DNA of 64,000 nucleotides, from positions 50,878-114,877 of the forward strand of contig NW_026857783.1 in assembly GCF_026571515.1 (NCBI RefSeq), given 5' to 3'. This DNA is from Ruditapes philippinarum (Eukaryota). How positions within the stretch are numbered: the first letter of the stretch is position 1; every line of letters starts with the position of its first letter. The notes below the pieces were generated by a model, which did not search any database, had not been told where the DNA came from, and worked only from the letters and a program-made list of their open reading frames with translations. Made by a program: the position numbers and the translations under genes. Of the stretch, positions 2,701 to 61,289 are shown piece after piece.

Positions 2701-4308
2701 TGTATGCGGCCATTATTTTGGCTACAAATATTCAATATGATTTTACAAAAGGTTAAGATTGAATAATTTCAGTGCCTTTACATTGTATAAAAATGGTTTG
2801 TGTTTACATTGAATAGTTTTAAGGGGTTTGAACTTAAAATGAAAAAAAAAAACATAAACAACTTTGGAACTAAATATTATAACATCTGAAGTTTTGGCTG
2901 CATGCGGGGGGCATCCGTGGCATGATGACACATTTCTAGTAAATAAATATTTTGTAGATAATTAAAAATCACAAACATGCAATGTGTATAATACCGCACA
3001 TATACTTTAAAAATCTAAATTGTTAAGTCTTTTTTGACAAACTTGTTTAATAGCAAAGTGAAATATCAAATATCTTAATCATCCAGTACTTTAAGTTATT
3101 TGTCAGCCATATTAAAGAGCGGTCTCATTGTTGCCCAGGCTACCCAATTAATGCTTTGTTAATAAATCGCGTTTCCTTATAGGCATGATGTCAGATAATA
3201 TAATTGAAGCGTCTGTTGCAATAGTGAAGTGTGTGTTGTCAGACTTGTTCAACAAGAAGCTTATATTATAACAAACAAAGATGAAATCAAATACACATTG
3301 CATGAACAGAACGTATAATTATACCAGGAGATATTAGTGTACCAATCATGTCAAGTTCCCTGGACTAGATGTACAATACATTTCTGTTTGATAGTAAACT
3401 GTTGCTGTTTTGAATTTAACATGCGACCGGCTTTCAAACAAATAGCTTTATATGAGAGACATACTTAATTTCTTTTAACATTTTCAAGAGAGTTTCATGT
3501 TTCTTTAAAGAGATTAATTTGTTACATTTTCCAAACGTTATAATAACTGTTGAATATAACATGTAGAAAAGAAAAGGAAAAATCATTATGGTTGCTTAGT
3601 TTGTGCAATGGATTGAAAAATAAAATGTTGTCTAACACGATTGTCAATCAAATAGAATATAGACAGTTGTATTGTTACATAATAAAACACCAGTTTGAAA
3701 GACGGGAAGGAAATCCTTACCTAAAACACATAAATAAGCCTAATCTGATCATGACAACAAAGATCCTGTCTTTATAAAATCAGTTACAGTTTAGTGACCG
3801 CTCGAAATACCAGATGCCAGTATACCTAATCACGTGATATCTATGGATACCAGATTACGTCATCAGAGATACAAAATACGTCATTGATTGTTCTGTCCAT
3901 TCCTTCAAGCATATATATCATTTGGACACGTCTTTGGTTTCGAAAAAAAAAATAAATCAGGGTAATAGATCAACTTAGTAAATCAGCAGTGTTGCAATTT
4001 TAATTATTAAGTACAGTTATACATATCAGTAAATTGCTTTTGAATGCTATGAAGGACATTTTTCGTCTGCAAACCTTTGCTCCTGAATCAGGAGTATAAT
4101 ATATACAAGACGTTTGGAAAATATTGATAAATCATTTTGACTGTTATAGAGTCATTAATTTCTTTCTAGTTTCCTATCGTAAATTTTCATTTTCTATTGT
4201 TTGATTGTTTTTATTTTGTTGCTTTTGTTTTTGTTGTTTCGTAAACAAGTTAAGTTTATCTGAACATTTGCATCCTAACAATTGCATAAACGATATAAAA
4301 CACTTGTG

Positions 4309-4437
4309 CTAGGGGGCGTGGACGGGAACTTGCACTTTCCAGTACCGTCCATGAACAGGCACAATCAAACCGAGCCTGCAACATTTTCAATTTTGCCGTG
4401 TTGGGCTTTCTTTAGGGATTCTGTATTTATCTATATT
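4309..4437 (-). mobile_element. Interspersed ~130-bp hairpin repeat (Helitron-3'-end-like, or SINE). Other copies at 19123-19262, 46640-46712 (rc), and 51040-51300 / 51335-51560 (rc, tandem pair)
   Basis: Near-identical 'ctagggggcgtggacgg[gt]aacttgcactttccagtaccgtccatgaacaggc.caatcaaaccgagcctgcaacattttcaattttgccgtgttgggctttctttagggattctgtatttatc' at 4309 and 19134. Read on the minus strand it ends in a hairpin (ggacgg..ccgtcc), then 7 nt, then CTAG. The divergent 51-kb copies keep both hairpins through compensatory changes (gaggga..tccctc; cagactc..gagtctg). Confidence 0.6.
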
Positions 4438-7188
4438 ATATTGTTATGAATAATATAATTTTGTAAACATTTTGTTTCAAATTTGGGGTTAAAGCTCATT
4501 TATTCCCATAAAATTAAGAAAGAGTAAAATGTCCAAGTAATGTACGATATGATTATTTTCAAAATGTTCTTGGTAAGTATTAAACATATGCTAAAATATA
4601 CTATTTCATTTAACGCTATATTTCATTTTTGTATAAATCAATGATATGATAAAACAACATACCTTGTCTTTAGGACGTCAACACTGTTCAACGTCCAGAG
4701 AATTGTTGCCAATGTGATTGTTACAAACTCCCCTTTCAAATTACATTCATGGTACTTATTCAGTAACGTAATCATCTACATCAAGTTACAAAAGCATGTC
4801 TCTGTTAAATATATTTTGCCTATTCTACGTTTTAAGTTAAAAGAAATGAATACTTTTTATTCTACTTATCATATATGTAAAAGATGAAATATGCGGGTGC
4901 ACCTAAGGTCGAACATGCTCCTAATTCCGACCAAAATATCATAATTCATTTAATATTTCATGTTTAACACAATTCACAAAAGCGACATCATTATAATAAC
5001 GTCACTTTGTCTCTCTTTCCACACGCAACATTTTGAATTTGTTGTTTGTTTTGATTTTGGGCATTCAAGGATATACTTCAATTTTTGGTAAGTCATTTTA
5101 TTTATTAGCTTAATTTTTACAAATTTTTACTAATAATATAAAATGTTGAATATTGATGCTTTAGTCAAATTCTTTTGAAATCAATGATGTAGACAAAAAT
5201 AAAAATCATGTGTGAAGCCCGTGTACATGTTTTAAGGTCGTATGACTGAATAACTGGCTGTGTTCGGAATTACATACTGCACTCACTGAATGTTCCAAAT
5301 TCCGAACAAAAGTTGATAGAGAATGATTCACCCCAGTGGACTCAACAACTACAGCAACTACTGTTGTTACAGCAGCTGTGACTCCTCCTACATCAGCTGG
5401 TAAATTATCGCCGTCAGATATTGTAAACGAATCTGTGCTTGATGAAATTCCTACAGCTTCAACTGATTTAGTCACCACTCCATCTAAGCCATCTACCCTC
5501 GTGTCTCTCTCAGTGGAGCCGACTGTTACATCAACATCATTCATGTTTACTGTGACACCTAACATTGAGACTGATTCTATTACAACACCATCTAAATCTT
5601 CAGATGAATGTGTTCCTAAAGCAACAGACGAATCTATGTCACAATTTAGCAAACATTTAATATTCCCAAAGACTGAAACAAAGAAACCAATAGCACGTAA
5701 AATGATAATGCCAAAAGCAACAGGGGAAAAGTACAGATAATGGTTGAACGAAAAAGCAGAAAAGAAAGAAAAGGGATTGAAAAAAAAACAAGAACGTCAG
5801 AGAGAATGATTACAAAATAAACTCAAGAGAGCCAAATAGCTGAAGGAAAAACAGATTGCACTCGAAAAGAAATGGAAGGATAGAGAAGAAGCGAAGAAAA
5901 AGCTGAGAGAACTGAAGGAGAAAAAGAAGCAAGAGACTAAACAGAACATAAAAGAAATTAAGGCATCCGATTCAGATGATAATATTGCAGTAAGTCCTAC
6001 AAGCTGTTTTAAGTGCAAAACACTTTATGAGGAATATATACAGTGCATAAATTGTTTCAGGCGCTGTTTTTCTTACTGTTGTTGCCGATGAACTTACAGA
6101 CTGCCCGGATGATCTTCCTTTCGAATGTAAATACTGTTAGTGTTGGTGCAACAACATATATTCTCCACATATAGAAAATTACTTGATGCAAACTGTAGTT
6201 ATAGTATTGTCGCTTAAAATATGCTATTGTTTGAATCTTTTTTTTTTGGTATTTGAAACTATATATTTTCCTTTGCGTTGACATTCAATACTTTTTTTGC
6301 AGAAATGAATATGATTAATAAAATTTCTGAACATTTAAAAAATACTTTGATGATTGACAAAACTTATTTCTAAGGTAGATTTATGCCAAAGTACAAAAAT
6401 GGTGTGTATTTGTTTACGAAACATATTTTATTCATATATTTATTTTTAAAAAGTTCCTCATGTTCGGAATAAGGAACACCAATGTTCGGAATTACAATCA
6501 TCGTTCGGTATTAGGGGCAGTAGGTAGATCTTTTGATCGGACGATAATGCTTTTATTTGTATTCGTTAGGGTTTTAAAACTGGCAGCATAATTACTAATC
6601 TATTAAAGTAACCCACTTTGATGTGACAGATTTTAATCCACAATTTTCTGATGTTCATTGTGGTAAAGAATTATGTTTTAATATTATTGGAAAGGATCTT
6701 ACTTGTAATGTAGATAATGCAGTTTTGCAAAACGATAACAATGAGGCCATTATTAAATCAACATGCCTTGGGATAAAAATCTGAAGGATGATTATATAAA
6801 TCAGTTTGATAATATCGATACAAATAATATTACAGAAGAAATGATTAAAATATTAAATGATAAGAATTATAATGATGAATGTATTAATTCCTTGACTGAA
6901 AAACTGTCAAGTATCATAACTAATGCTGCTAAAAGGTGTAATTTAATACAAGAAAAAAAAATTCACAGAAAAGAAAAAATGCAAACTTGACCAAAAATGG
7001 TTTGATAAAGATTGCTCGAAATTTAGAAAGGAATATTACCTAAGCAGAAATACCTATAGGAAAAATAAAACCGAAGGTAATAAAAACCTTATGATGATAA
7101 ACAGTAAAAGATATAAAACAAGAGCGATCAGTAATCACATGTGTCGCCGTCATGATAGGCAAAGTTTCATGTTGGGACACAATTTTGT

Positions 7189-7995
7189 GACAGACAGACA
7201 GACAGACAGACGGACAGTGCACAACTAGGACTTGGTACTGATCATTCCTGTAAAGTTTGGATAAAATTGCACCAGTAGTTTTTATGAGTAGTAGGTCCGG
7301 ACAAGCTTTTTGCGTATCTGAAAAAAACACCTTTTTATCAAAGGGCCATAACTCGGCAAAAATCATTCAACCCGGAAAACCCGTGCAATATGCGCAAGGA
7401 AACTTGAGCTGATCAAATCCTGTAAAGTTTCATTGAAATTGCATGAAGTGGTATAAGAGAAGTAGTCCGGACAAACTTTAAAAATAAAAATTATTTAAAG
7501 GCCATAACTCTGACAAAAATCATTGGAACCGGAAAATGCTGACAATATGCACAACTAGACTTGGTACTGATCATTCCTGTAAAGTTTGGATGGAATTGCA
7601 CCAGTAGTTTATGAGAAGTAGTCCGGAACAAACTTTTGTGTATCTGGCAACACACAGAAAAAGAAACCTTTTAATCAAAGGCCATAACTCGGCCAAAAAA
7701 TCATTCAAACCGGAAAAACCCGTGCAATATACGGCGCAAGGACTTGAGCTACAGATCAATCCTGTCAAGTTTCATTGAAATTGCATTAGTGGTATAAGAG
7801 AAGTAGTCCCGGACAAACTTTAAAATTAAAAATTATTTAAAGGGCCATTAAAACTCTGACAAAAATCATTGAACCGGAAATGCTGACAATATGCACAACT
7901 AGACTTGGTACTGATCATTCCTGTAAAGTTTTGGATGAAATTGCAACCAGTAGTTTATGAGGAGTAGTCCGGACAAGTTTTGTGACGGACGCACG

Positions 7996-8042
<47 letters not shown>
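7189..8042. repeat. Tandem array (~340-bp unit with ~170-bp sub-repeat, 2.3 copies, 7218-7984) bracketed by (GACA)n microsatellites (7189-7217 and 7985-8042)
   Basis: Units start 'gcacaactag(g)acttggtactgatcattcctgtaaagtttgg' at 7218, 7549 and 7893. There are (gaca)7 on the left and (gaca/gacg)14 on the right. ORF 7982-8338 starts inside the microsatellite (DRQTDRQTD...). ORFs 7040-7366 and 7571-7768 are spurious. Confidence 0.85.
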
Positions 8043-8044
<2 letters not shown>

Positions 8045-8092
8045 GAAGTGATCCCTATATGTCGCCACTACTCCGTAGAGGCGACACAAAAA
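8043..8092 (+). mobile_element. Hairpin-bearing tail following the microsatellite (pearl/HINE/Helentron-type 3' region)
   Basis: 'gtgatccctatatGTCGCCactactccgtagaGGCGACacaaaaag' contains a 6-bp stem hairpin. The same architecture (tandem core, then tetranucleotide microsatellite, then hairpin tail) recurs at 25651-26138, 54151-55389 and as a solo tail at 48600-48700. Confidence 0.5.
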
Positions 8093-8094
8093 GA

Positions 8095-9420
8095 ATTTAA
8101 TAAAAAGTTTAAGAGTTTCAATGACAATGTCATAAAAAAACTGAGAGGATTAAAGCATAGTGATCCTAAATCTTATTGGAGTTTATTAAATACATATTCT
8201 TCTGATAAAAAAGTGATAATAAATAAAATAACTAATGAGGTTTTCCATGAGCATTTCAGTAATTTGAATGCAGATATTTTAAGAAATGAAAATGACGTAG
8301 ATAATTTAACAACTTACCAATGTTTAATGAGGCACTGAATTCGCAATTTACTGAGCAAGAAATAGATAAGGCTATAAAGGCGCTTAAGAATAATAAAAGT
8401 CCATCTATATTTGATAATATTCATTAATGAGTATCTCAAAAAAACTCCTGATAATCTGCTGGCTGTACTTACGCTATTTTTTTTAACATTATATAGACTC
8501 GGGTATCTTTCCGGATGTGTGGAGCAAGGGAGTTATCTTACCATTGTATAAAAATAAGGGGATATTAATGATCTGGATAATTACAGGGGCATAACAATAC
8601 TCAGTTGCTTTGGAAAACTTTTCACTTCGGTACTTAATAACAGATTAAATGACTTCTTGAAATCAAACAACATTCTATGTGAAGACCAAAGCAGGTTTTC
8701 AGGAAAGCATTATAGTACTGTTGATCACTCATATTTTCATTTAAAACTTTCTAGTGGACGTTAATCTAGCACATGGAAAAAAGTTGTATTGTACATTTTG
8801 TAGATTTATCGCAAGGCCTTTGATTCTGTTAATCGCACTGGCCATGTGGCATAAATTATTAAGTTACAAAATTGATCGGGAAAGCTTTTAAAATAATACT
8901 CAATATGTATGACAAAGCAAGTCATGTGTTAGTTCGAATAATTTACAATTTCAGATTTTTCACTAGTCATACTGGGAGTAAGACAAGGTGAAAACTTATC
9001 TCCAATATTGTTTTCTCTTTTCTTGAATGATCTAACTAATTTTTATAGTTTGATAAATATGAAGGTTTGCAGTTTCTAAAAGAACATATAAATGATAATG
9101 TTAAGTAATGATGAAATGGAAGTTTTATCTTAAACTGTATTTACTATTGTATGCGGATGACACTGTAATATTGTCAGAGAGCTCTCAGCAGCTTCAGTTA
9201 GCATTAAACGCTATGTTCTGACTACTGCAAGCTTTCGAATCTTGAAGTAAATTCAAATAAAACCAAAGTTATTTTATTTTGGAAAAACCAAGAGAGGTTT
9301 GCGTAATATGCCTAACTTTCACTATGAGGGGACTGTCCTTGAAATTGTTGAGCATTTCTCATTTTTAGGGTTCAAATTTTCATTTAATTAGTAAACTTCA
9401 GCAGAACTAAAACATTCCTT
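8095..9420 (+). pseudogene. Decayed non-LTR retrotransposon (LINE) ORF2 / reverse-transcriptase fragment
   Basis: Three-frame translation gives RT motifs broken by stops and frameshifts: 'FTEQEIDKAIKALKNNKSPS', 'YRGITILSCLGKLFTSVLNNRLNDFLKSNNILCEDQSRF', 'FVDLSQGL...', 'NLSPILFSLFLNDL', 'LYADDTVILSESSQQLQLALNAMF', 'FLGFKF'. Confidence 0.75.
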
Positions 9421-15059: not shown

Positions 15060-15780
15060 TTGTGACGAATCACCACGAACGTCATGACAATATGAGCCGC
15101 GTCATGACAAAACCAACATAATGGGTTTGCGACCAGCATAGATCCAGACCATCCTAAAACAATTATTTCGTAAATTTGGTAATTGTTTAAAGGAACATTA
15201 TGCCTCAGAAATGATTTTATTTCTATTTCTCTAATCCTTTATTTTTGGTGTTCTGTTTAGTGTTTCTTCAAATGTACTCGTAGGCATATTACTGGACTGT
15301 CTTTTACTACTGCTGCTTTTTGGCAATTACTATTATTTTAATTTTAGTGACTTAGTATTTGGTATGGAAGTCAAAATACTACTTTGTTATCATTTTGCTA
15401 CTTTTATGACAAATAATTTCACTTTCATTGTACTTCTACAGTGAAATGCATCTATATGCTTTTAAACCGTTACTAGTATTTAATCCTTACAAAACTAGTG
15501 TTTACCCTTTCTAAAGAATGGAAAGTATATTCCTTTCTAAGGCAAAATGTGTCTTTAATAAAACAGAAATAAACGACACGATATACACTTTAATCTTTAG
15601 TAAACTCTCCAAAATAGATATAATTAAGCAGATGATTTTTAAATAACAGATGCTGTAAGATGCAATAAATCTTCGTTTGATTTCTAAACGAACGCGTGGT
15701 ATAGTAATTATACTGTCTGACAACAAATCAAAGGGCTGCAAGTACTATTCTCTTCTACTAAAATTACAAATATTTTCGGG
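15060..15780. repeat. Paralogous block A: the uninterrupted copy of the sequence at 27040-27235 + 29010-29420
   Basis: Long near-identical stretches, e.g. 'ggtatggaagtcaa[a/c]atacta', 'gaaatgcatctatatgcttttaaaccgttactagtatttaa', 'aaacgaacgcgtggt[a/g]tagtaattatactgtctgac'. Copy B is split by ~1.77 kb of LINE sequence. Confidence 0.85.
15093..15150. mobile_element. Hairpin-MITE family, truncated copy (left arm only)
   Basis: 'gagccgcgtcatgacaaaaccaacataatgggtttgcgaccagcatagatccagacc' matches the left arm of the full copies at 29715-29931 and 61083-61289. Confidence 0.7.
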
Positions 15781-16139
15781 GTAAGAGTTTAAAGCAGCAT
15801 ACTTCTAGATTCCTGCTAATTCATGCGTTAGTCAATAGTCATACTATAGAAATATGTTGATGAATTCTGCAAGATCAGTTTTTATCGCAGATAACTTGTA
15901 AAATCATAATTTGAATGTTTTAATCCTTTTATCTTTTTTTTTAATTCTTAGTACATTTTCCTCATGCTTGATTTTCTTGAAATATTTTTCGCTCATATGG
16001 AGGCATGCAGCTTTAAACCAAGGCCCGGTATATGCCATGTTGTACACTTCAATAAAACTTGCATATTTATGGATGTATCTTGGACTTTTTTCCGATGAAA
16101 ATGATACTTATATCGGTCAAACGAATTAGATTGATCCCA

Positions 16140-17663: not shown

Positions 17664-19058
17664 ATGGAAGTTTTACAGCTATTCTTTTATTTTAGGTGTG
17701 TTCTCATAGTGAAAGGACTTAACAACATGCTTACTAATGAATCGTTATCAAATTACAACAATTCAGATCTAGTGTCTACTTTGATAGCAGAACAAAGTCG
17801 AATCTGCCCTTATATTGCTTTGTGTCATGCATCAAACAGCTCTTCTTTTCAATTTGATAGATCTATGAGCAAATTACCGTGCTGCAAGGCATGTTCGTGT
17901 CAGGACACTTGTGTTCAAGAAGGTTCTTGTTGCCCGGATTATTTCAATGCAGAAGGTATAGATTTTAAGGAAAACCAGACATCACATGATAATAATAAAA
18001 AACCTGTTAGTGCCAGTGCTAACACGACGTTAACACATACACAAGAATGTGTTAAAGTACAACATGGTCGAATACAAAATCAAGACGGTTACATGATGGT
18101 AGCATCATGTCCACCCAACTTTGACGACATTGAAGTAAAAAGGAAGTGTGAAATGAAGATACATCATAGCAACCCCTTCGACATAATTGACAACGTCCCA
18201 GTAACATACGAAGATCAAAGACAAACATATAAAAATCAATACTGCGGACAATGTAACTTGCAAGAAGATGTATTTCCTACATTTTGGCATGTAACGCTCG
18301 TGTGTGATATACATTACTTTTCTTTCAAGTCCATTTCCGCGGTTAATCAATTTGAATTCATAGAGGCCGTTCTATTTACAATGCCTGGGAAGTGTAACGT
18401 AGTCTTTGAGTATGAAACTACAAATATCAGCTTAAATGCAGAACTTCGACAGTGTACATACGACACAATGATCGATAACTGCATCAAAGAACATTCGAAC
18501 ACCTTTCTTCAAACAATGTGCAAGAACTATTTCTGGACTATTACGGTGCAAGTCATTTCTGAAAGAAAAATATACAAAAACTATGCATGCCTGCTCTGTA
18601 ATGAAATAAGCTTCAGGGATAGATGTACAGTAAACCAAGAACTCAAACCAGTTGTTATTCAATTTACATCTATTTTGAACATCACTCGGAAACCATCAAC
18701 TTTCGTCGATACTTCGAAAGATGAACAACATATTATCAATCGTTATTTTCCAAACACAGACGGGGAAATTCGCTGCAAAAAAGGATTCGCACATGATATT
18801 AGAAAGGTATTGAAAATAAAAAAAGTTGTATCGAGTATGTCTTTGTACCCATTGCTTTATTCAACAAACACTTTTGTTATGATTATGAAAATACCCGGAA
18901 CTCCATTAAAGTATGCTATTTTACGTGGCGTCCTGAGTCAGGCTTATTGTTTTTCTCGTTTAGGGCACACGCTTTTTATTACTTGGGGACCTTACGCCGC
19001 TTTTCATGGAATGGCACGGAAGTGTCACATTGAAGGTTCCATGATAACCACCGTATGA
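17664..19058 (+). CDS. Uninterrupted 464-codon ORF for a cysteine-rich (27 Cys) protein with N-terminal hydrophobic leader and a somatomedin-B-like motif (CCKACSCQDTCVQEGSCCPDYF). Probably a large exon or single-exon gene for a secreted/extracellular domain
   Basis: It is the longest ORF in the window, and 1.4 kb without a stop is very unlikely by chance at ~66% AT. The C-x-C-x3-C-x5-CC-x-D-Y spacing matches the SMB domain pattern, with N-glycosylation sequons and a hydrophobic C-terminal stretch. Antisense ORFs 18105-18350 and 18432-18662 are spurious. True start and possible splice exits (e.g. AAAG|GTATTG near 18806) are unresolved. Confidence 0.5.
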   Translation: MEVLQLFFYFRCVLIVKGLNNMLTNESLSNYNNSDLVSTLIAEQSRICPYIALCHASNSSSFQFDRSMSKLPCCKACSCQDTCVQEGSCCPDYFNAEGIDFKENQTSHDNNKKPVSASANTTLTHTQECVKVQHGRIQNQDGYMMVASCPPNFDDIEVKRKCEMKIHHSNPFDIIDNVPVTYEDQRQTYKNQYCGQCNLQEDVFPTFWHVTLVCDIHYFSFKSISAVNQFEFIEAVLFTMPGKCNVVFEYETTNISLNAELRQCTYDTMIDNCIKEHSNTFLQTMCKNYFWTITVQVISERKIYKNYACLLCNEISFRDRCTVNQELKPVVIQFTSILNITRKPSTFVDTSKDEQHIINRYFPNTDGEIRCKKGFAHDIRKVLKIKKVVSSMSLYPLLYSTNTFVMIMKIPGTPLKYAILRGVLSQAYCFSRLGHTLFITWGPYAAFHGMARKCHIEGSMITTV

Positions 19059-19122
19059 ACACATCTGCGGATGTTTCTAAATTTAAAATTTTACTATTTC
19101 ATGTTTAAATGTTGAATTCTGC

Positions 19123-19262
19123 TTAAGCCGCTGCTAGGGGGCGTGGACGGTAACTTGCACTTTCCAGTACCGTCCATGAACAGGCTCAATCAAACCGAGC
19201 CTGCAACATTTTCAATTTTGCCGTGTTGGGCTTTCTTTAGGGATTCTGTATTTATCTATTTT
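19123..19262 (-). mobile_element. Second full copy of the hairpin + CTAG interspersed repeat
   Basis: About 95% identical to 4309-4437, with a few extra 5' bases ('gcttaagccgctg') shared with the rc copy at 46700-46712. Confidence 0.6.
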
Positions 19263-22083
19263 ATTAAAGAAAGTGCAACGACTGCGTGTGCACACGTGAT
19301 ACTCTACGTAAATGCATGATTTTGTCTCTGCTAATGTATACGTGCGTGCGTACTACTTTTTATGCATGCAAGAATATAGTTCATTTCATGACTTAGAAAA
19401 ATCATATATAGAAAATTATTCTTTTAATGTAATAATGCAATATTTTTTATCATTTTTCTTGTCTCATATACAACATTTTACAATAATTCTAATGGTATAC
19501 CAAAACAGTATACACTGTTGGGCTTTTCAAATTACTGATTATCCCATTAAACTATTATGATTACTGGTATATACCTTAGATGCATTGTTTTTAATGTAAC
19601 AAAATGCTAATAGGCCTGTTTTCCGACTTTCCAAACGCGATTCAAAACAATAAACGGACATTTACTTCAACATTTTACCCGTTCCTGTTAAATAAAGAGG
19701 TCATGATACACATTTGTCTTTTCAATACTAAGTTTATTTGACGGCACCTCGGCCATTATAAGTGATAAAGTTGTTTGTCTACTACTCCATTTCTATTCAG
19801 TATAGTACTCAACAATATATAATAACAGCAGTAAGCAGTCAATGGTATATTAGGTATTATGCATTTTTTAAAACTTATTCCAATTAGTTTGGGAACTTTG
19901 AACCTCTACGTAAACAAATCTTGTTAAAACACCGACACAGCAAATAACAACAAAAAAAACAAACATTGTATCATAGATGAAACTGATCAACGTTTACGGT
20001 AAACACGTAACCTATTGATCATGCATAAAATGCAAGTCTTATTCTTATAGATTAAGCGTCATTGAAATTGATAAAATGTAATATTAAGCTAGCATTAGTG
20101 TAATGGTTGGGTTATATATTTATCCACAACTGACTTTTTAATTGTAGGATGTATGCCGACAACTTTTCATAATTTTTCTTCTTTTCAAGATAGTATATGA
20201 CACTTTTTTTCAAGTATTGGGAAATTTCACCATCCAATTTAAATTGTTAATTTTCAGTGCCACTACCCCTTTTGCACATTTGTAAGGAATTATTTTTGGA
20301 TATGAAATAATTTTGTTTCTGGTAGAAATTACCTATGTTTTTGCTTTTATTTGGGGCCGATACTATTTTAAAAAAGTGATTTTAAGTAACAAGTGACCAT
20401 TTTTCTTTACATCTTTTGTCATCTTGAAAAACAAATCCATGCGCATAAAAGAGGCCCCCTTTTCACAGGCTCAAAAATGGCACATCTTTTCTAACAACTA
20501 AAACAATTTTTTAAATGTAGGTAATCTAATAAGACTTAAATCAAAAGCATCTTCAGATATATTGCAAATAGTCTTGTAAAGTGTCAAAAATAGAAACCAA
20601 GAAGAACTTTCTCCATTAGTAAAAGGTCAGAAATTATGTCATAAATTGCATAAAACGTTAATCTATAGTATATAATAATAATATGCATGAGATTTTATAA
20701 ATATTTTTGTGTGAAACGCACTGTATTTGAAGACAATTTAATGAAAGTGTATAAAACTATATATTCTGGTGCCAGTTGTGAAAAAACTTTTGAGTTTTGA
20801 AAAAGGATACAAATATGAAAGAAATTAGTCAATATATTTTGGATGGTAAAAAATCTTCCATAAATAGCAAAATAATACTTTATTATGGAATATTTTAATA
20901 TGTTTGTATACAATAAACTATATGTGTTTTATGACACAGACATTTTTTCTAAGAACTCGTTTTAGAAACTACTGCAAGATTATTGAAACATCATAATTTG
21001 AATGTAAAAATATTTCATTAGGTAAAGCTTATTTATTGTACCAATTAAATAAAATAAAAATAATAAACCTCTCAATTATTTGATTCAATATTGATATCAA
21101 AGTTTAACCCGTCAAATATATGTAAAAAGCTGAATATCAATGAAAGCAAAGTTATTTACTAGATTCTGTCAAATATGATACTAATGTCGTTGAAAAAAGT
21201 ACTCACTGTGGCATATAATGGAAAAAAGACGTTTAAAAATGTCTAGCTTGTCATCAAATTAAAAGAAAGAAAGGCAGTGTTTAACATTGTCCTAAATTTA
21301 TTTATCGGTTGTTTTTATATATTTTTTTCTTTTCTTATCTTGAATTCTGAAATACTATACCCATAAGATATGTAAAATTATATTTTACTTCAAGGCAATA
21401 AGGTATGCTATAAAAGACATTTCATACCACATTAGAAATTTCTTCCTTACCTAGATACACAATCCAAATCAATAAAAACATTGTGCGTCCTACTGCAATA
21501 ACATTGCCATCATATGTGTAATAATGTGTTCCGATTATACACGATTTCTCTTTGTTCCTATTACAGATTGTAAAAGTAAATAAAATTATTCAAAATATCT
21601 TAAACATTTAAGTTAATAACGTATAAAGTTAATCAGGAAGAGATATGCAAGGTTGGCGTAAATGATATCTGTAAAATCATAAATACTAGTAAAATGTGTG
21701 CGTTATTCAAAACGTGATATAAATTTTGATTAAGATTGTAAATTCAATTCTTATTTAGCTTTTTGAAGAGATCTTGAATACTCGTTTATCATTGACATAA
21801 CTGATAAGGGCGATAAATCATGCATCGGAAGAGCATTTCAAAAAAGATCAAGTTGGACTGTGGGAGAGATTCAGAATAAATATAATTCAGAAACTAATTA
21901 AGCAGTGTTATCACCAATGTGGTTTATAAAACACATTAAATTTTAATATGTTTTTTCTTGTTTTTTCCTTTTTTGTCATTTTTTCAGTTTTGTTTACAAA
22001 AATAGTTAATTACAACTTTTTACTTACTCCTTTCTACGAAAGCCTAATAATATCAAATAAAACAAAAAATAAAAATGCAAAGG

Positions 22084-23668
22084 AGTTATAACGCGTCTAA
22101 AGGCGTTATTATGCGAATCAAAAGGCAAAATTACGCGAAACAAAAGGTGTGATAACGCGAAAAAAAGCGTAACAACGGGAATAAAGGCGAAGTAACACGA
22201 ATATAGGCGTTATAACGCGAATCAAAAGGCATGCTTACGCGAATCAATGCGTAATAACGCGAATAATTGCATAGTAACAAATAAAGGCGTTATAACGCAA
22301 ATCAAAATGTGTATTAATGCGAATAAAAGCGTTATATCGCGACTCAAAAGGCGTAATAACGCGAATGAAAAGGCAAAGTAACGCGAATAAAAGCGTAATT
22401 ACGCAAATAAAGGTGTAAGTATGCGAAAAAGGACGGAGTTACGCGAATAAATGAGTAGTATCGCGAATAAGGGAGTTGTAAGGCGAACCAAAAGACGCAA
22501 TAACGCAAATTAAAACGCATTATAACGCCAATTTAATACCGTATTTATACTAATCAAATGGTCCAATAACGTGAGAAAGGAAGAACAATATTGATCTGAT
22601 TTTTTTGCTCAAGATATAAACTACTGTATAATAACATAATATACATTAATAATAAATATTATTCTATTTGCACAGTAATAATGTAAACTATTTGTCATAC
22701 ACTAATGAAGACTATGTGAGATTTGTCAATATAATGTGACATGGTGACTCATGGGTCCATTAGGCTCGAAATAAATACAGTTACTCTAAATTCACATGTA
22801 TCACATCATTGATTTTACACATGTCACTATTTTATATGTGGGTCATAATTATGTTATTATCTACGGATATGTCCTGTATAATAACCTAATAACCTGTAGT
22901 ATCTTCTCATTATGTGGTTGTCGCTCCTAATACAGTTAAAGGTAATAGGCTATAGGTAAGGAATTGGAAGAAACGTTAGGTATAAGTAAGTCACATAAGG
23001 AATGAAATTGTATCTTAATTATTGAAATGGTGATAATGTTTCGGTTAATTCAGTTAAAATCATAAGTCATAGGGGCCATTGTTTTCTTTGTCTTTGTAGA
23101 AAAGTATCGACTAGTTGGCTTTGAAGAAATGTATCTAATAGTTGGGTGATAGTTAATCACTTATTTGGTAAAAGTCTTTCCTAATAAGAGATTAATAATC
23201 AGACTGTGGTATTAGGACGTATCCGTGAAGAATTGAAAATAAAACGCAAATCTTGATCAATTCACTTAGATCAGCATTGTTCTTTCTTTTTTACATTACC
23301 AGGCAACTTATAATAATTTATATGGTATTGAATAAGTGTTATAACGCCTTTCGTTTTGCGTTATTTCGCATTATTTCGGTTCGCGTTATAACGATTTTAT
23401 GTTCGCGTTATAACGGCTTTGGTTTCGTGTTATAACGCCTTTTAATTCGCGTTATAGCGTCTTTTTTTTTTGCGTTATTTAGCCTTTTGATTCGCGTAAG
23501 TACGCCTTTCGATCAACGTTATAACGCTTTTGTATGCGTTATAACGCGTTAATACACCTTTTGATGCACGTTATTACGCTTTTTTGGTTCTCGTTAATAC
23601 ACCTTTTTTGCGTAACTACACCTTACGCCCTTATTTCGCGTTATTACTCCTATTTGCGTTATAACGTC
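22084..23668. repeat. Foldback-like structure: two inverted arrays of a ~15-bp minisatellite (22084-22540 forward; 23337-23668 reverse) around an ~800-bp spacer
   Basis: The forward arm is (aaaggcgttataacgcgaatc)n-like. The reverse arm is 'gcgttataacgcctttcgttttgcgttatttcgc...'. ORFs 23253-23435 and 23534-23941 are translations of the repeat. Confidence 0.85.
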
Positions 23669-23972
23669 ATGTGTCCTTTATACTTCATCCTTGCCGACGG
23701 GATATGTGTACCGCTATTCGCAAAACTACATAATGTGCATTACCTTATTTTACTGCAGGCAGATGTTGTATCTGCGTCGGGGAATTTCCACGACGAAGAA
23801 ATAGAAGTTGCTCTTCTAACAAGTGGGCTTGATAATATATTAAGTGAACAATTAGGTGATGCACTTTTAAAGTTCTCTATTTGGAAGGACGAGAATTCGC
23901 CTTTGAAGCGCCAGTTTTTTTGTAGTTATTACTGTAGCTGAAAATTGTGATAATGGAAGTTTTATAAACATT

Positions 23973-24716
23973 TTGAAATTTACACATGATATTATAAGAC
24001 ACAGTCATTATATCAATAAAGATATACAAGTATTGTTCAGCTTTAACTCTAAAGTAAGTTTAGAAGCTAACAGATTTAAACTGTCATTGAGTGGATTTCT
24101 AAGTCCTCTTCTAATTTCACGTACCAGTAAGCAGGTAAACATTAGTGACGAAATGGTAATGCCGTTATACATTTCACCATCATTTCTTTGCTTTAGGTTT
24201 ATGCTTAACATAAACGAAATAATAGAAGACTTTGGTTCATTAAGGTCATTTTACCTAAAAATGAAGGTGTCTAAAGTGAATTTTCAAGTTTCAAAAAATG
24301 GCGATTACTTCATGTGTTTACAAGAAGGCTTACAAAATGCCATCAGTGCAATGGATATATTTTCAAGAACTAACTCCTCAAATTATAAATTCATCTCAAA
24401 AACATCAGGAAAAATCCGAAATGATATATCACCAAAAGAAAGTAAAGAGAGAAGTGCAACTAATGATATCGATAAATCTCTAGTAGCAACTATTGCGACA
24501 GTTGCTATTGTTGCTTTTATTTTTATAATCAGACGTGTACTGAAACGACGTATGGCTGGACAAGTTGATACAAATCTTGTTGAATTTGCTAATGGTAGAA
24601 GTACTCAATGCACGGAATCGTTTGGTCTACCTTTGAGTGGGGAAAATGAGACTGCATTTAATGGTGGAGACTCGGCAGGAGCAGTGGTTAGACATGTAGA
24701 TGAAGAAAGACAATAA
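23973..24716 (+). CDS. Possible terminal exon encoding a membrane-proximal segment, one TM helix (LVATIATVAIVAFIFII), a basic stop-transfer (RRVLKRRM) and a ~60-aa cytoplasmic tail
   Basis: 247-codon ORF. A good acceptor (tttctttgctttag|g) lies near 24195 inside it. Whether it belongs with 17664-19058 (~5 kb upstream, same strand) cannot be decided from sequence. Confidence 0.3.
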   Translation: MKFTHDIIRHSHYINKDIQVLFSFNSKVSLEANRFKLSLSGFLSPLLISRTSKQVNISDEMVMPLYISPSFLCFRFMLNINEIIEDFGSLRSFYLKMKVSKVNFQVSKNGDYFMCLQEGLQNAISAMDIFSRTNSSNYKFISKTSGKIRNDISPKESKERSATNDIDKSLVATIATVAIVAFIFIIRRVLKRRMAGQVDTNLVEFANGRSTQCTESFGLPLSGENETAFNGGDSAGAVVRHVDEERQ

Positions 24717-25650
24717 GGAATGGTTGGATGATAAAGGCGCTGTTTCTTTAAGCAACACCACGAAAAATGTAGGTTAACAAGAAAACTAGACATTCTTCAC
24801 TCACATGTTTTGTAACTCATGATTATCTTGGACAGTCTCAATCAAACCGAGCTTGCAACATTCCTCATTTGTCATTTTGTTGTTTAATTTTTCTGTGTTA
24901 CACGCACATCATGTATGACAATGTTCATAAGTCTAGCATTTTTTCAAGAGTGATCTCCCCTTTAGTTTAAGAACTTCGCTTTTAAAAATGTTATATCTGG
25001 TGAGAACCAGGGATGCTTAAAGATTAACCATCAGAGTGTCTGTCCATCTGTCTGTCTGTTCTTTCCTAAACATTTTTTCATGAGATCACTTTTAAAGAAT
25101 TTGGAACCTTTCCAACATATTTATTTAAAATAGAGAAAAATTGAAACATTTGTTAAACATATTCATCCTGAAAAATTGTTATCTTTTGATAATTTGTTGT
25201 ATAAACATAATTTCCTTACTGGACAGCAATAATTAATACATTTCTATGATACAAACTATGAACTTAAATTTTTTTGAACGTCAAATTATTTAATTTTCAG
25301 TATTTTTTGTTGTAATTGACTTTAACCTGGTTATTAATATATATTGGATATCTTCATACTTGGACAAAACAACAGTGGCTCTTGTTATGATAAAATCTGT
25401 CAATAAAATTACTTACAAGTTTAAAAGTATGTCTGTGCTATATAATTCCAGAATCTCAAACCATTGAGAACAAAAGCTGTCCGTAAGACAGCGCGCTCGA
25501 CTTTTTTATTGCTTGCCAATAAAAAAAGTTTTTGCAGTAAAAGGCAATACAAGAATCTCTGTATTTTTAAAGTGAACAATGGCCATGAGCATTAAGATAT
25601 TTAGTGAAGAATTATTTTACTGAATTGTGTGATGTGAAATAGCATTAAAA

Positions 25651-26060
25651 GTTTCAAAGCAATATCTCAAAGGGTTAAGGCAATAAGTGGATTTTACCCA
25701 TATTCAATGTATTTTCTAAGTCAAAAAGGGGCATAATTCTGTCAAAAACCTTGACAGAGTTATGTCCTCTTGTCTGTTGATGAAGGTCGTGATGGTAAAC
25801 AAGTATGGTCAGTTTCAAAGCAATACCTCCAATGGTTTTGAAATAAAGTGAGGTGGTACAAAAAACTTAACCAAGCTCAATACACTTTCTAAGTCAAAAA
25901 AGGGCCATAATTCTGTCAAAAACCTTGACAGAGTTATGTACTCTTGTCTGTAGATGGAGGTTATGATGGTGAACAAGTATGGTAAGTTTCAAAGCCATAC
26001 TTGTAATACTTCTGAAATAAAGTGGGGTGGTACGAAAAACTTAACCAAGGTGTGACGCCA

Positions 26061-26091
<31 letters not shown>

Positions 26092-27234: not shown

Positions 27235-29010
27235 TAGTTCAAAGTTCAAATTTTATTTACAAATCAGCATTTTGTTTTTGCCAATACATACAAAACATAT
27301 ACATACATAGATCTTGAAATATAGCACACATAACTACAAGATACATATATAAACATTTCAAATATCAGTATTAAATTAACAAATAACAAAGTAGTGTTAA
27401 TAATATATCATTAATTTCGTCTATTTATCATTTGTTCCATGGTATTAGATCGTAAATCAAAAGCTTTTTCCAAGTACTTACTTATCAGTAATAATCTATG
27501 TTTATTATTAGATGACTTGATATAATAAAACTTATTCAGTGTGGGAAAAGATGCATTACGAATAAAAAGTTTTCTTAATTCTGAATAAAATGGACAACAA
27601 AGCAGGAAATGATATTCTGATTCTATCATGTTTCGACTACAAAGTTTACATATTCTCTCATTTCTGTTTAAACCTATATATCTGCCAGTTTCAATTTCTA
27701 GAGAATGGAAACCAAGTCTGAAACATGTCAAACGTTTTCTTAACTTGTCATTTTGTATCAATTTAGATATTCCTCAAAACAAAAATTTGATTTGAAATTT
27801 CTAAAATAAAAGAGTTTTGGCATGTTATTTATTTGCTCATGCCAATTTTGTATAATTGATCTCTAAGGCGTTGTTTAAAAATTAAGCTAAAATCAGAAAT
27901 AACATTATAGTTATGTAACAAATATGAAAATCCTAACTCATTAATAATAGTATGAGCTTGCCTAGCTCAGCATTTATTAACACATTGATCTAAATACATG
28001 CTATATATAGGCGAATGCTGATTATTAACAATTTTATTCCAAATCTTTAATGATCTTTCTTTACACAAAATTGACAAAGGAAATTTACCAAGTTCTCCAT
28101 AGACAGCACAATTAGGAGTTTGTTTTTAACACCAAGTACATACTTATAAAATTTTATTTTCAGTTTATCAATATCTTTATATTTATAAATTCCCCATACA
28201 TCTGAACCATATAACAGAATTGGAGTTATCAGACTATCAAAAAGGTGCAGTTTAGTTTTAACATCTAGCTTTATCTTGTCAAAAATACCCAATAGACTGT
28301 TATATGCTCTAAGGCCTTGCTCTGCAAGAGTCTTAGTTGCTTCAGAAAAGCTACCCGTATAAGAAAATTTTACACCTAAATATGAAAAATTATCAACAAT
28401 ATCTACAAACTGACCGTCAATATTTATACTAAAATTATGTACAGATTTTCTTCTTTCAAAAACACAAACTTTAGTTTTATTAACATTAATTTTAAGCCCC
28501 TATTTTGACGAATAACTATATACATTATCAACTTGAGCTTGCAAGCTCTCTGGACTTGTAGTGAAAAGCACGATATCGTCTGCAAAAAGTAGCAAATATT
28601 TAGACAAGAATTCAAGGTCACTATTCGACATTTTGTTAAGATCTATACATTTTTCAATATCATAAAAAAAGAATAAATAGCAGGGGAGATAATGGCTCTC
28701 CTTGCTTTAACCCAAGAGTTACGTCGAAAAATACTGACATATTCATAAAAGCATTAATTTTTACACATGACACTACTAAGACAAATATATTGCCTTTAAC
28801 ATATTTATCATTTTACAACTAATACCAGTATCTAACAGCTTAATCCATAACGCATCTCTTATAACTGTGTCAAAAGCCTTTTCATAATCAATGAAAATAC
28901 AATAGAGTTTAGAATTTTTGCTAAAACTTTCTGAATTATGGAATGAAGAATAAAAATAGCATCAGAGGTTGATCTCGAATCTCTAAAACCAAGCTGAATA
29001 TATAGTGATA
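27235..29010 (-). mobile_element. 5'-truncated CR1/L2-like LINE fragment (RT plus C-terminal zinc-knuckle), inserted into paralogous block B
   Basis: Minus-strand ORFs give RT motifs: 'SRSTSDAIFILHSIIQKVLAK' (28859-29080), 'LFDSLITPILLYGSDVWG' (28047-28292), and the tail 'LTCFRLGFHSLEIETGRYIGLNRNERICKLCSRNMIESEYHFLLCCPFYSELRKLF' (27411-27761). The 3' end on plus coordinates (27250-27330) carries an (atacata)-type microsatellite, as CR1-like elements do. The flanks 27040-27235 and 29010-29420 are contiguous in block A. Confidence 0.85.
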
Positions 29011-34055: not shown

Positions 34056-34367
34056 CTCTTGTCTGATACGCATCGGGAACCAGTCGGTTGAAAACAAATT
34101 GGTTCTCTTTTAAAAATTTATCGACTGCTGGCGTAGTAACATTAAAAATGTGTTTAGCAAGAATATATGTAATTTTGTAAAAGAAGGATTGAAATTCTAG
34201 TAGTTAATTGGTCAGTAAGTTTTAAAGTAGAAAGGGTAATTGTGTTTCCCTGAATATCATGACAAAGTATTGGACCTATTTTGCCTAATGTAGTCGAGAT
34301 GTGTTAAAACCAAATCATAATTCCATTGGGTCACTCGCTTGCGCTAGACGCCCCAAAACGGATAACA

Positions 34368-34698
34368 ATGCAAAAATCGAGTGTCTATGTTGCATTGCTC
34401 AGTGTTTCTATTTTGCTTATTGGAAGCGGAATTTTAGTGTATCTACTGTCAAATAAGAATAACACATGCCAATGTAATATTCCAGACAGGTGTTTTATTA
34501 ATGCGACGACAAATTCCCTTGAGCAGACGACAAATTCTCGTGATCAGACAACAAATTCTCAGAATCTCACGTTACCTACTTTCACGACGAATTTTCAAAA
34601 AATCACTTCTGCTGTAACTACGCCGAAGGAATCAGTGCATGTTGGAACAAGTTTGGCGACAACTTCGTCTCCACTTAACACAACAACAGAAATACCAG
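34368..34698 (+). CDS. C-type lectin gene, exon 1: short cytoplasmic N-terminus, signal-anchor TM (VYVALLSVSILLIGSGILVYLL) and a Thr/Ser/Asn-rich stalk
   Basis: ATG at 34368 inside ORF 34326-34739. Weak donor CCAG|GTTTGA gives phase 1, which joins exactly to exon 2. The stalk has three (Q)TTNS(R/Q) repeats. Confidence 0.6.
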
Positions 34699-35190
34699 GT
34701 TTGAAGTTTAGCATTTTATTATTCCATAGATTAATTTAAAAAGTCAGCACGGCTATAGATCTGTTGCATAAAGTATTATAATTCCTCGCATCCCAACTCC
34801 AAACAGTGGTTTTATTTAGCGATAAAATCACTGTTTTGGATGTATAATTTCTTTAACACTAGAACGGTACATATATAGTTAAATATAATCGTAAATCTTG
34901 CACTGGTAATGTTAAACCTAGTCGGATTTTTCTATTTCATGTCTACATTATTTTAATTCAACCAGATGTTTTTGGTTATTTTGAGTCTATTAATATGGCT
35001 CAGTAACTAACAATAATAATCTAATTTGTAATAGGGGCCTTTCTTAATAAATATAGTAAATATTTATAAGTACGTATTTTACAAGCTGAAACATGACGTA
35101 AGTTTAATGTTAAACGTCATTTTTATGCAAATAAAGGGTCTTATACTTAAAAAGAAAGTGTCGTCTGCATACATTATATTCTCATTATAG

Positions 35191-38200: not shown

Positions 38201-40435
38201 ATAGGGCATATTTTTTAGGAAAAACCTGCTAAAAATGTTCTTGACAGGAATTTAAAATATTTTTAAACTGTTATGTATAAAAAATTTTGTGCATATGCAA
38301 CATTTAGTTTGATTAACATTTGTGAAATGTAATTTTTGACTACAAGATATTTACAACAAAATATAGTGTAAATGAAATATACCTGGAAGTTACTTTTACT
38401 GTTTTCGTGAAGTTAAAACCATTCAAATACAAATTAAATCAGTACTTTGAAATTTAGAAAACAAATCATAGCTTAATGGATTATTGTAAATTTGTTGGAT
38501 TTGATAAAGCAAGTCATTAAAAGTTATTGTTTTTTTCTTATTATTCAGCATTCCAATTTGTCGTCTGCTCAAAATCTCCCTCCTTGAAATATACATCGTC
38601 TGCTACAAATCTCTCTCCCTGAAATAAACACAGCCACGTGCTTCTGTTTACTACTGAAGGTTCATGATCTGTAATGATCACATGGCTCCTCCCAGGGAAA
38701 TTCAAATTTCAAATTTGACAACCAGTATTTTTTCCAGAAATACACTTAACAAAGTTATAGTTTGAATAATTTGGGCAATCTTTCAAAAATATCTATGCCT
38801 ACAAACATGCCAAGTGTTGTTTTAATGCATTTGGTAATTAATCTTAAATCTTTGAAAAAGGGTCCCTGAAGTGAAGCATGCATAAAATTAATAAGAAACC
38901 TGCCCTAGCGCCATCTGCTGGCTTTTATAGTCCAGTTGGGCCTTTAAATTAAAGGTAATGCTATACAAACTGAAAGATTGTCCAATACATAAATGGTCTA
39001 CTGCACTAGGAGTGAACTTCAAAGTGCACTTAATGTACACATTGAAGTGCACTAGAAGTGCACATGTAGTGCACACCAAGTGCACTTGGTGTAACCTTTG
39101 GTGTTAACTCAACTGTACCTTAGATTGACAGAAAAGAACTAACAATTTAGTAAACATGGGTTACTTCCCCTTAAAATAGAGAAAACCAGCTGAGACCTTA
39201 AAGTACACCCTAAACAGCAAAATAATAAAATGTTGCAGGCTCAGTTTGATTAAAAGTAATGGTAAAAAGAATTCATAAAAAGTTAGAAGGCCATGTGACA
39301 ACAGTAGAATTACATTGCAGAAAACCAGATAGCTTTCAACATCCGGATACTGGTACACTTTGTAAAAACAATCATTATGTGCAATAGATAAACGTGATAT
39401 GGATTAAATTCAATAGAATAATCGTTTTCAACAGTTCCATTGCGAATCCTTATACTCATTTGAATATGAACGTTCTTCTTGCAGAAAAATTCTAACCGTA
39501 TATAGAACGAAACAATAAACAATGCATAATTAACAAAAATGATTAAACAGTGTAATCTATAAAATAAAAACAAAACAACTTAACCTGAGTTAAATAACAA
39601 AATTGAATACATCATATAGGCCACAACGATATTCGGAATCCGGCTTTAACTATTCGCGACAAGCTGTAAAACTGAGTCTGTCATTTTATGAAAAAAAATA
39701 TCCAAATGCATATGCTTTTTACATAAAGTTATTAAATACAAATATAACACCATATTTGTTTAATTGATTTTTCAAAATCAAAATGAAACTAATTAAGACA
39801 ACATGCCATTAACTGCTAATAATAACAGCTCCTACCATGTGCAAAAAAAAAAACGCAAACAAAAAACAAACAAAAAACATTCCATAAGAAACGACGCCGC
39901 TCACCGGCGTCGCCAATAAGCAGAACACAACTTCCAGTTCCGGTCGTTCACGTTTCACGATAATTATCAATTTTCCCGAAATGGAAATCTAATTGATTCC
40001 AATCTATTTCCCTGCCATTGGATTCTTTGCGATGTCATGATTTCGGATGGTTTATTATACTTGATTGATAAATAATTAAAATAGCGTAAATTAGTAAATT
40101 TTGTATAAGAGCTGGCTTTTAGGCTTTGCAAAATTCATATTAACTAGCTAGAAGAGCAGGTTTGAAGTGTCTGCTCGTATAGCGAGCATAGCGGTAACAA
40201 AAGTAGCGTCCAAACTTTGATGGTTTTGAAAAAATTGGCCGGAAGTTCACTTCACTTTGGACAGAAGCTCTTCTATCTGGAGATCCATTTTTACAAATCT
40301 TAAGGAAATAAAAATTAAGCTTTCACATTTTGATTCTTAGCGAGTGGAGGTCTTTGTAAAAAAATACACGTACTTAAAGTGTATTGTTTTCAGAGATTTA
40401 CCTTATTCGTATGATTTAAAACATGTTTGTTCCAG

Positions 40436-51039: not shown

Positions 51040-51560
51040 CTGTCACAGAACTGGCATTTTCATTTCAATACATCTAAATTCTGGAAACAAAGTGATCCCT
51101 CGGAAACATTAATTACAACAAATTAACATAAGAATTTCAGACTCGGTTTGATTGAGTCTGTACATGAGGGATAATGTATAAGTGCAACATCCCTCACACC
51201 CCCTAGCACCGGCTGAGCGGTACTCAATTCTCAACACTTTATAGTGTTGGCATCAATGACCCCGAAGGACCAGAAAATATAACAACACTGAACTTTTTAC
51301 GGCTGCCACACGGCACTTGACACCTGCTGTTGTGAAGTACAAAATTCTGGAAACAAAGTGATCCCTCGGAAGCATTAATTACAACAAAATAACATAAGAA
51401 TTGCAGACTCGGTTTGATTGAGTCTGTACATGAGGGATAATGTATAAGTGCAACATCCCTCACGCCCCCTAGCACTGGCTGAGCGGTACTCAGTTCTCAA
51501 CACTTTATAGTGTTGGCATCAATGACCCCGAAGGACCAGAAAATATAACAACACTGTAGT
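51040..51560 (+). mobile_element. Tandem pair of ~290-bp elements whose 3' ends are hairpin + 7 nt + CTAG (Helitron-terminus-like), diverged relatives of the 4309/19134 repeat
   Basis: '..cagactcggtttgattgagtctgtacatgagggataatgtataagtgcaacatccctcaca(c)cccctagcac[ct]ggctgagcggtactc..' at 51131-51240 and 51391-51500. ORF 51239-51475 is spurious. Confidence 0.55.
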
Positions 51561-61082: not shown

Positions 61083-61289
61083 TGAGCCGCGTCATGACAA
61101 AACCAACATAGTGTGTTTGCGACCAGCATGGATCCAGACCAGCCTGCGCATCCGCGCAGTCTGATCAGGATCCATGCTGTTCGCTATCATTTTCTACTTG
61201 TAAAAGGGTTAATAAGCGAACAGCATGGATTCTGATGGGATCCATGCTGGTCACAACGCACTATGTTTGTTTTGTCGTGACGCGGCTCA
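61083..61289. mobile_element. Hairpin MITE, complete copy
   Basis: 'tgagccgcgtcatgacaaaaccaacatagtgtgtttgcgaccagcatggatccagaccagcctgcgcatccgcgcagtctgatcaggatccatgctgttcgc' plus its rc arm, ending 'cgtgacgcggctca'. Same family as 29715-29931. Confidence 0.85.

Follow-up and report, generated by a model that had tools for sequence, protein, structure and literature searches.

A damaged and probably inactive copy of a two-exon gene for a predicted single-pass DUF8401 membrane protein in Ruditapes philippinarum

The DNA analyzed here, called the window throughout, is a stretch of 64,000 nucleotides of Ruditapes philippinarum contig NW_026857783.1 (assembly GCF_026571515.1, positions 50,878 to 114,877 of the forward strand), and our subject is a gene on its + strand between window positions 17664 and 24716. 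Two open reading frames (ORFs) in this region, at 17664-19058 and 23973-24716, are genuine coding sequence from one two-exon gene. Taking the evidence as a whole, we consider it likely that this is a gene for a single-pass DUF8401 protein, with an ectodomain shared with class-B G protein-coupled receptors (GPCRs), and that the copy in the window is damaged and probably dead. The window is AT-rich (~32% G+C); long ORFs are scarce in it, and dispersed repeats and retrotransposon fragments abound, which marks it as nuclear DNA of an animal, and the relatives of the gene point to a probable source among bivalves or other invertebrates of the sea. A preceding reading of the letters by eye (the sequence-only reading) had located both ORFs correctly (464 and 247 codons, both on the + strand), the frame of the second being open from 23907, and had judged the first to be longer than chance allows. 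The latter judgment holds, in that the stop probability per codon at the composition of the window is 0.076, giving P ~1e-16 for 464 codons; the next-longest ORFs within the 64 kb are of 247 and 148 amino acids.

Exon 1 (17664-18806, + strand; 381 codons) begins with the start ATG and encodes a signal-peptide-like leader, an apparently degenerate somatomedin-B (SMB) motif and a DUF8401 domain; it contains 24 of the 26 Cys of the 464-codon ORF, for which 27 had previously been counted, and ends in phase 0. All homologues long enough to cover the 3' end of exon 1 lose similarity after D[IVA]RK and diverge from there on, and because this point in the window reads DIRK/GTATTG (AAG/GTATTG at 18806/18807), the exon was taken to end at 18806. 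The proposal that the whole ORF is coding stands for the codons up to that position and fails for the last 84, which are read-through into the intron. Intron 1 (18807-20147, + strand) is in phase 0, with its donor, GTATTG, at 18807 and its acceptor, ttaattgtAG, at 20146-20147; the donor and acceptor context recurs in contigs L004 and L006, and positions 1-439 of L004 align with window 19708-20147, within the intron, at 89%. A word-indexed search with exon 1 gave the relatives P0001 (88% identity), P0002 and P0003 (both 48%), all on metagenome contigs, and an exhaustive HMMER search gave 250 relatives at E<=1e-3.

Exon 2 starts at 20148. Its first 13 nucleotides (GATGTATGCCGAC, encoding D V C R R...; 20148-20160, + strand) align with L004 positions 440-452 right after its acceptor, and acceptor plus GATGTATGCCGAC occupy window 20136-20160. 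The encoded motif CRRxxCPLYF, which matches P0024 and P0025, resumes at 23666, and the remainder of the exon (23666-24716, + strand) encodes a Cys motif, a juxtamembrane domain of ~250 residues, a transmembrane (TM) helix and a predicted cytoplasmic tail, with the stop codon at 24714-24716. A polypyrimidine-AG acceptor followed by codons for (D/N)xC(R/Q)(R/L)xxCPLYFxxxDGxCxPLF is found in L004, L003 and L006. The TM helix, LVATIATVAIVAFIFII (24480-24530, + strand), was located by a hydropathy scan and is kept in all exon-2 homologues as well as in P0061, L007 and L008. The 61-residue tail (24531-24713, + strand) carries the motifs RRxLKRR..GQxDTNxVEF and SGENETxFNGxDSA, conserved in alignments, the second in the closer copies. 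The single TM helix, the basic stop-transfer sequence (RRVLKRR) and the tail that had been read from ORF 23973-24716 are, accordingly, all present. Homologues of the frame 23907-24713 include P0152-P0154, with identities of 83%, 82% and 53% and the same stop as the window, and the exon-2 homologues P0164 and P0165 (40% identity) have a shorter tail, ending earlier than the window stop. The internal acceptor that had been suggested near 24195 exists as a string (ctttgctttag/G), but lies inside coding sequence that is conserved at the protein level. Both this AG and another at 23758 were considered as splice sites and rejected, since protein conservation runs through both and L006 has CAA in place of the CAG at 23758.

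Comparison with divergent paralogues supports the exon boundaries, because identity drops from 64-73% within the exons to 41-48% in their flanks: with L001 it is 64% within exon 1 and 47-48% in both flanks, and with L003 it is 73% within exon 2 and 41-47% in the flanks. The ratio of nonsynonymous to synonymous substitution rates (dN/dS) is 0.41 for exon 1 against L002, 0.25-0.28 against L001, and 0.38-0.44 for exon 2. These values, 0.25-0.44 over both exons, indicate purifying selection in the family.

That the two ORFs belong to one gene, predicted to encode a type-I membrane protein, as had been surmised, is borne out by physical linkage, by a single ORF spanning both parts in a relative and by alignment across the junction. 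Exon 2 is uninterrupted in the metagenome/genome contigs L003-L008, and exon 1 lies upstream of it on the same strand in L006-L008. In L006 the end of exon 1 reads ...CKKGYVYDNKK/gtattt, with exon 2 following 1.7 kb downstream on the same strand; the layout is the same in L007 and L008, with introns of ~7.3 and ~3.2 kb. P0061, on contig L005, is one uninterrupted ORF of 740-754 residues that spans both parts and has a single TM. BLASTP and hhalign matches to the Mactra protein P0024 and the Ylistrum protein P0025 are continuous over the reconstructed junction, e.g. RCKKGFAHDIRKDVCRRVMCPLYFILADGICVPL versus KCQPSSVLDYYSGECRQMVCPNGFILNGYNCLPL. These relatives carry both parts together, rather than the two ORFs matching unrelated genes. 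Joining 17664-18806, 20148-20160 (plus GT) and 23666-24716 (minus one T) yields a protein of 735 residues, the part order of which matches the single-pass DUF8401 layout of L006, L007, L008 and P0061, at the cost of three repairs. In the juxtamembrane domain the matches are weak, yet colinear (fl.hmm on L008, E 1.7e-11; BLASTP to P0061). With hhalign the match between the exon-2 family and the GPCR relatives was limited to the first 36 residues, and scans of metagenome contigs with the alignments of both exons found nothing.

The family to which the gene belongs could also be assigned, although the sequence-only reading had considered no confident assignment possible. PF28443 (DUF8401), an ectodomain family common to SMB-bearing class-B GPCRs, is a precomputed assignment on P0001, which is 88% identical to the window protein over the same 313 residues, and on P0002, P0003, P0061, P0014 and P0016; through these homologues the window protein can be placed, indirectly, in PF28443. 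Its SMB-like motif, CCKACSCQDTCVQEGSCCPDYF (17880-17945, + strand), has the core CxCx3Cx5CCxDY, a spacing that also occurs in vitronectin (CQCDELCSYYQSCCTDY). The match to the SMB Cys spacing noted earlier is exact for the core CxCx3Cx5CC; the last canonical Cys is absent, with no Cys within 38 residues past CCPDY, and the spacing of the N-terminal, upstream Cys differs. The Pfam SMB profile, PF01033, scores 17.5 bits on the window protein (E 0.005, profile positions 15-34 of 40), which is below its gathering cut-off of 23.1 bits. Compared with the SMB domains of vitronectin, ENPP1, SUSD2 and EndoU, the likeness consequently lies in the core Cys spacing, and the window motif differs in being sub-threshold, partial and without the last Cys. 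The cut-off is passed at the aligned position by the relatives P0012 (47 bits), P0049 (31.8), P0108 (25.8), P0060 (23.6) and P0147 (23.5), and because distant relatives do so, the motif is read as a degenerate SMB knot. In a search of PDB sequences with a 106-member family profile there were five weak matches, all to SMB proteins (SUSD2, EndoU, vitronectin twice and ENPP1) and all aligned on the CSC..C..CCPD columns. The AlphaFold model of exon 1 has a mean predicted local distance difference test score (pLDDT) of 72.9, with a core above 80, and no structural neighbor of it was found in the PDB; the AlphaFold 2 model of the juxtamembrane domain, made for P0153, has a pLDDT of 43, too poor for the fold to be read.

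The closest comparison is with single-pass PF28443 members, i.e. P0061 (ENA ERZ25073285, a 754-codon ORF) and the genes on L006-L008, which have the same order of parts as the window gene: leader, CSCxxxCxxxxxCCPD, DUF8401, C..CRxxxCP module, juxtamembrane domain, TM and tail. Common to all are a juxtamembrane S.S..CYR..L..NEI motif and a short basic tail containing TN, and the two-exon members have a phase-0 intron in the same place, whereas P0061 is without an intron. Identity between these members and the window gene is 21-58%, and their copies are intact, in contrast with the interrupted and frameshifted one in the window. The longer relatives (850-1250 residues) have an SMB, ~600 extracellular residues and then a 7tm_2 domain; they come from bivalves (Mactra, Ylistrum, Potamilus, Mytilus), echinoderms (Patiria, Antedon, Diadema, Amphiura), the sea slug Elysia ('GPCR Mth') and an amphipod, and are labeled uncharacterised or 'GPCR family 2'. 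Over ~400 residues the window protein is ~25% identical to class-B GPCR ectodomains (pairwise E 1e-28), and, up to the first TM, its extracellular region is about as long as theirs. The SMB-like motif, DUF8401 and the C..CRxxxCP module are shared with the class-B GPCRs of Mactra antiquata (KAL4223471.1, P0024), Ylistrum balloti (XP_060069087.1, P0025) and Patiria miniata (XP_038066764.1/A0A914ATF5, P0108); these receptors, however, run on into a full 7tm_2 domain, whereas the window gene has one TM and a conserved stop. Judged by sequence similarity, there is homology between the ectodomain and the extracellular N-terminal region found in a group of class-B (7tm_2, Methuselah/adhesion-like) GPCRs from bivalves and echinoderms. 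Earlier descriptions of SMB-bearing adhesion/Methuselah-like receptors concern the SMB/Kringle adhesion GPCR expansion of amphioxus (PMC2246102), NvX of Nematostella and PARF1 of planarians (both PMC3261222); by description, the basis on which they were compared, these resemble the window gene in having an N-terminal SMB-type knot on a class-B-type ectodomain and differ from it in being seven-transmembrane (7TM) proteins. In the literature we found no published study of a DUF8401 family member.

In the window gene, exon 2 is broken. An insertion of 3505 bp (20161-23665) lies inside the exon, 13 nucleotides from its start, and is absent from L004, L003 and L006; L004 aligns in two blocks, its positions 1-452 with window 19708-20160 and 455-1632 with window 23666-24852, and relative to L004 two nucleotides (GT) are missing at the 23666 junction. 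Further downstream, a run of seven T (23915-23921, + strand) holds one extra T, a +1 frameshift that splits exon 2 into the ORFs 23534-23941 and 23907-24716; L004 has six T and L003 TTCTTT at this place, and P0153 and P0154 read through as a single ORF. The right 1.6 kb of the insertion is a foldback (22075-23665), in which a ~22-bp unit, AAAGGCGTTATAACGCGAAT, is repeated in two inverted arrays, at 22075-22615 and at 23250-23665. The inverted minisatellite foldback that had been noticed earlier does exist; rather than being simply intronic, as had been supposed, it forms the right end of the insertion that splits exon 2. Its right arm stops exactly at the breakpoint, which suggests that it was the foldback element that broke the exon. 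The left 1.9 kb (20161-22074) is of ~27% G+C, with an A-rich stretch just before the foldback, and was found to contain no ORF of at least 80 residues, no sequence with another copy within the window and no target-site duplication that could be recognized; it may be a second element or belong to a composite one. For the 3.5-kb insertion as a whole no target-site duplication or terminal inverted repeats were found. As to the foldback itself, the repeat unit includes a perfect 12-bp palindrome, GCGTTATAACGC, and the arrays face opposite ways round a ~630-bp loop, which has a 27-bp tandem repeat of its own (23088-23145).

Because of the insertion, the two-nucleotide deletion and the +1 frameshift in exon 2, the gene as assembled cannot yield the full protein. 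Splicing from 18806 to 20148 gives a message that reads DVCR, enters the insertion and meets a stop, and a loss of expression may have followed. It is most likely, as judged from the sequence, that the window copy is a recent pseudogene or a null or disrupted allele. A number of points weigh against this interpretation of the locus. Exon 1 is fully intact, and private amino-acid changes number 12 in the window lineage, compared with 10 and 9 in the two sequences nearest to it; there is no excess, so that any inactivation must be recent, or some of the lesions assembly errors. A homopolymer of seven rather than six T is a typical long-read error, and it may be that only one haplotype has the insertion. 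The leader, although signal-peptide-like, has an Arg inside its hydrophobic core, the family membership comes from the assignments of homologues and not from the window protein's own hidden Markov model (HMM) score, and the function proposed is wholly inferential.

The alternative that survives best, though we regard it as unlikely, is that of an undamaged, working gene, in which the additional T and the lost GT are errors of assembly and the insertion is either a haplotype-specific or assembly artefact or is spliced out, for example by use of the AG at 23757-23758. The undamaged exon 1, the lack of acceleration in the window lineage and the position of the +1 change in a homopolymer are all in keeping with this, as is the strong polypyrimidine-AG at 23740-23758, which is in phase with exon 1. 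It would, however, require three independent lesions within one exon to be explained away, and the AG at 23758 is not conserved, L006 having CTGCAAGCG there. Use of this cryptic AG would also cost the protein 32 conserved residues, three conserved Cys among them, and would still meet the T7 frameshift, terminating at 23939-23941 (CSYYCS and a stop).

Considerably less probable is that exon 1 functions alone, encoding a truncated ectodomain, cysteine-rich and secreted, in the form of the 464-residue read-through product or of exon 1 with a few further residues. Exon 1 is intact, and the non-coding tail of ORF 1 (18807-19058, + strand) stays open for 84 codons, for which the chance probability is ~0.001-0.005; but this extension is not conserved, L002 meeting a stop after 17 codons and P0002, P0003 and P0005 diverging immediately, and part of it overlaps a dispersed repeat at 19006-19266. 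The repeat, which is similar to a short interspersed nuclear element (SINE) or a miniature inverted-repeat transposable element (MITE), also occurs at 4307-4439, 39172-39251, 46571-46722, 47683-47768, 51135-51214 and 51401-51480. Between the copy at 4307-4439 and the one in intron 1 identity is 97.7%, and a 34-nucleotide piece of the repeat recurs at 24829-24862, directly 3' of the gene.

It is very improbable that we are dealing with the N-terminal part of a 7TM class-B GPCR gene, the 7TM exons of which lie farther downstream or were missed. Among the distant relatives the ectodomain does occur on 7tm_2 receptors, and the single TM is at about the distance of TM1 from DUF8401. However, the window gene does not continue into a class-B 7tm_2 domain (PF00002), having a conserved stop after its one TM, and the succession of a single TM, a basic tail of short length and a stop is also found in P0152-P0154, which share the stop of the window, and in P0164/P0165, P0061, L007 and L008, all of which end soon after one TM. 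With an HMM of the 7TM part alone, built from 13 relatives, the best match in the six-frame translation of the window had an E of 0.9; in a positive control with spiked 40-residue pieces of held-out GPCRs the same approach worked, giving 14 of the pieces at E<=1e-3, against 16 listed. Searches of the window for 7TM exons by tblastn with 151 relatives, and with the full-length HMM, gave nothing above noise, and there was no 7TM signal within 10 kb downstream of the gene in L005, L007 or L008. A BLAST match to the Mytilus protein P0117 had suggested that the single TM might be the TM1/intracellular loop 1 region of a GPCR; this was rejected, the likeness to a TM1 HMM being 2.7 bits and not significant, with 20 of 300 block shuffles at least as good. 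Pfam matches to GPS/GAIN were found neither in the parts of the window protein nor in P0153, P0154, P0061 or the 7TM relatives scanned.

Some side observations concern 7TM-related sequences. P0117 (Mytilus trossulus XP_063412610.1), annotated with 775 residues, has TM1-3 and TM7-like segments and no 7tm_2 Pfam match, and looks like a gene model lacking some 7TM exons. In the window, ORF 57833-58198 (+ strand, 121 residues) has two or three hydrophobic segments, and its match to the 7TM family model (E 19) is not significant. Two short tblastn matches of ~55% identity, at 15073-15156 (E 3e-4) and 61063-61155 (E 2e-5; both + strand), are to the last 30 residues of P0098, and are probably a repeat fragment captured in that predicted protein and not family exons.

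That the long ORF is due to chance or is a decayed transposon ORF, the latter an alternative raised by the sequence-only reading, is scarcely credible, since, even in a neighborhood rich in repeats and retrotransposon fragments, its length is far beyond chance expectation, Pfam searches gave no transposase, reverse transcriptase or integrase domain in the parts of the window protein, dN/dS is below 0.45, and the 250 relatives are all cellular ectodomain proteins, including annotated GPCR ectodomains.

Returning to the single-pass DUF8401 gene, its ancestral product would have been a type-I membrane glycoprotein of ~735 residues, comprising in order a signal peptide, the degenerate SMB knot, a cysteine-rich DUF8401 region of ~300 residues, a C..CRxxxCPxxxxxxxxxCxP module that spans the exon junction, the juxtamembrane domain of ~250 residues, the TM helix and the 61-residue tail. 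Such a protein would be expected to enter the secretory pathway and to display a disulfide-rich, N-glycosylated ectodomain anchored by one helix; the 735-residue reconstruction contains 11 sequons. Because the ectodomain is one that class-B receptors use, recognition of a ligand or of matrix is its likeliest activity. Its output might be via the conserved short tail, or it might act as a decoy or co-receptor beside 7TM paralogues.

Other features of the window are for the most part repeats. About 1 kb 3' of the gene there is a 174-bp tandem repeat (25713-26049, 1.9 copies, 89% match), followed by a (GACGCC)6 microsatellite (26054-26090). The end of ORF 27411-27761 (- strand) resembles the C terminus of ORF2 of retrotransposons without long terminal repeats (CKLC...EYHFLLCCPFY, a zinc-knuckle-like motif), and L005 has a similar ORF2-like fragment, at 15379-15915, downstream of its homologous gene. 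A further membrane protein gene may have its first exon in ORF 34326-34739 (+ strand, 137 residues), which encodes a TM segment at the N terminus, a CxC motif and a mucin-like region with many Thr and Ser. The overlapping ORFs on both strands at 5206-5740, which are of low complexity and have much Thr, Ser and Val, and an ORF that starts within an (ACAG)n-type microsatellite (TDRQTDRQ) at 7982-8338, look like simple-sequence artefacts.

The overall results provide a corrected gene model for a locus that automatic annotation is likely to split or miss and, provided that the assembly is right, a clean case of mobile DNA inactivating a gene via a foldback-bearing insertion. A specialist is unlikely to be surprised, the family being known but uncharacterised. 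More tentatively, and with a probability that we would put well short of even, the single-pass DUF8401 proteins may be an undescribed receptor class, either SMB-bearing class-B GPCRs that have lost TM2-7 or an ancestral form later fused to a 7TM domain, in which the ligand-binding ectodomain has been kept and the proteins, in marine invertebrates including bivalves, serve their 7TM paralogues as co-receptors or decoys. If so, the window would catch one single-pass member just after its inactivation by a foldback-associated insertion. That DUF8401 is found both on 7TM class-B receptors and on single-pass proteins whose cytoplasmic tail is conserved offers a modest but serviceable hint as to how the receptor ectodomains of invertebrates are shuffled among signaling chassis.

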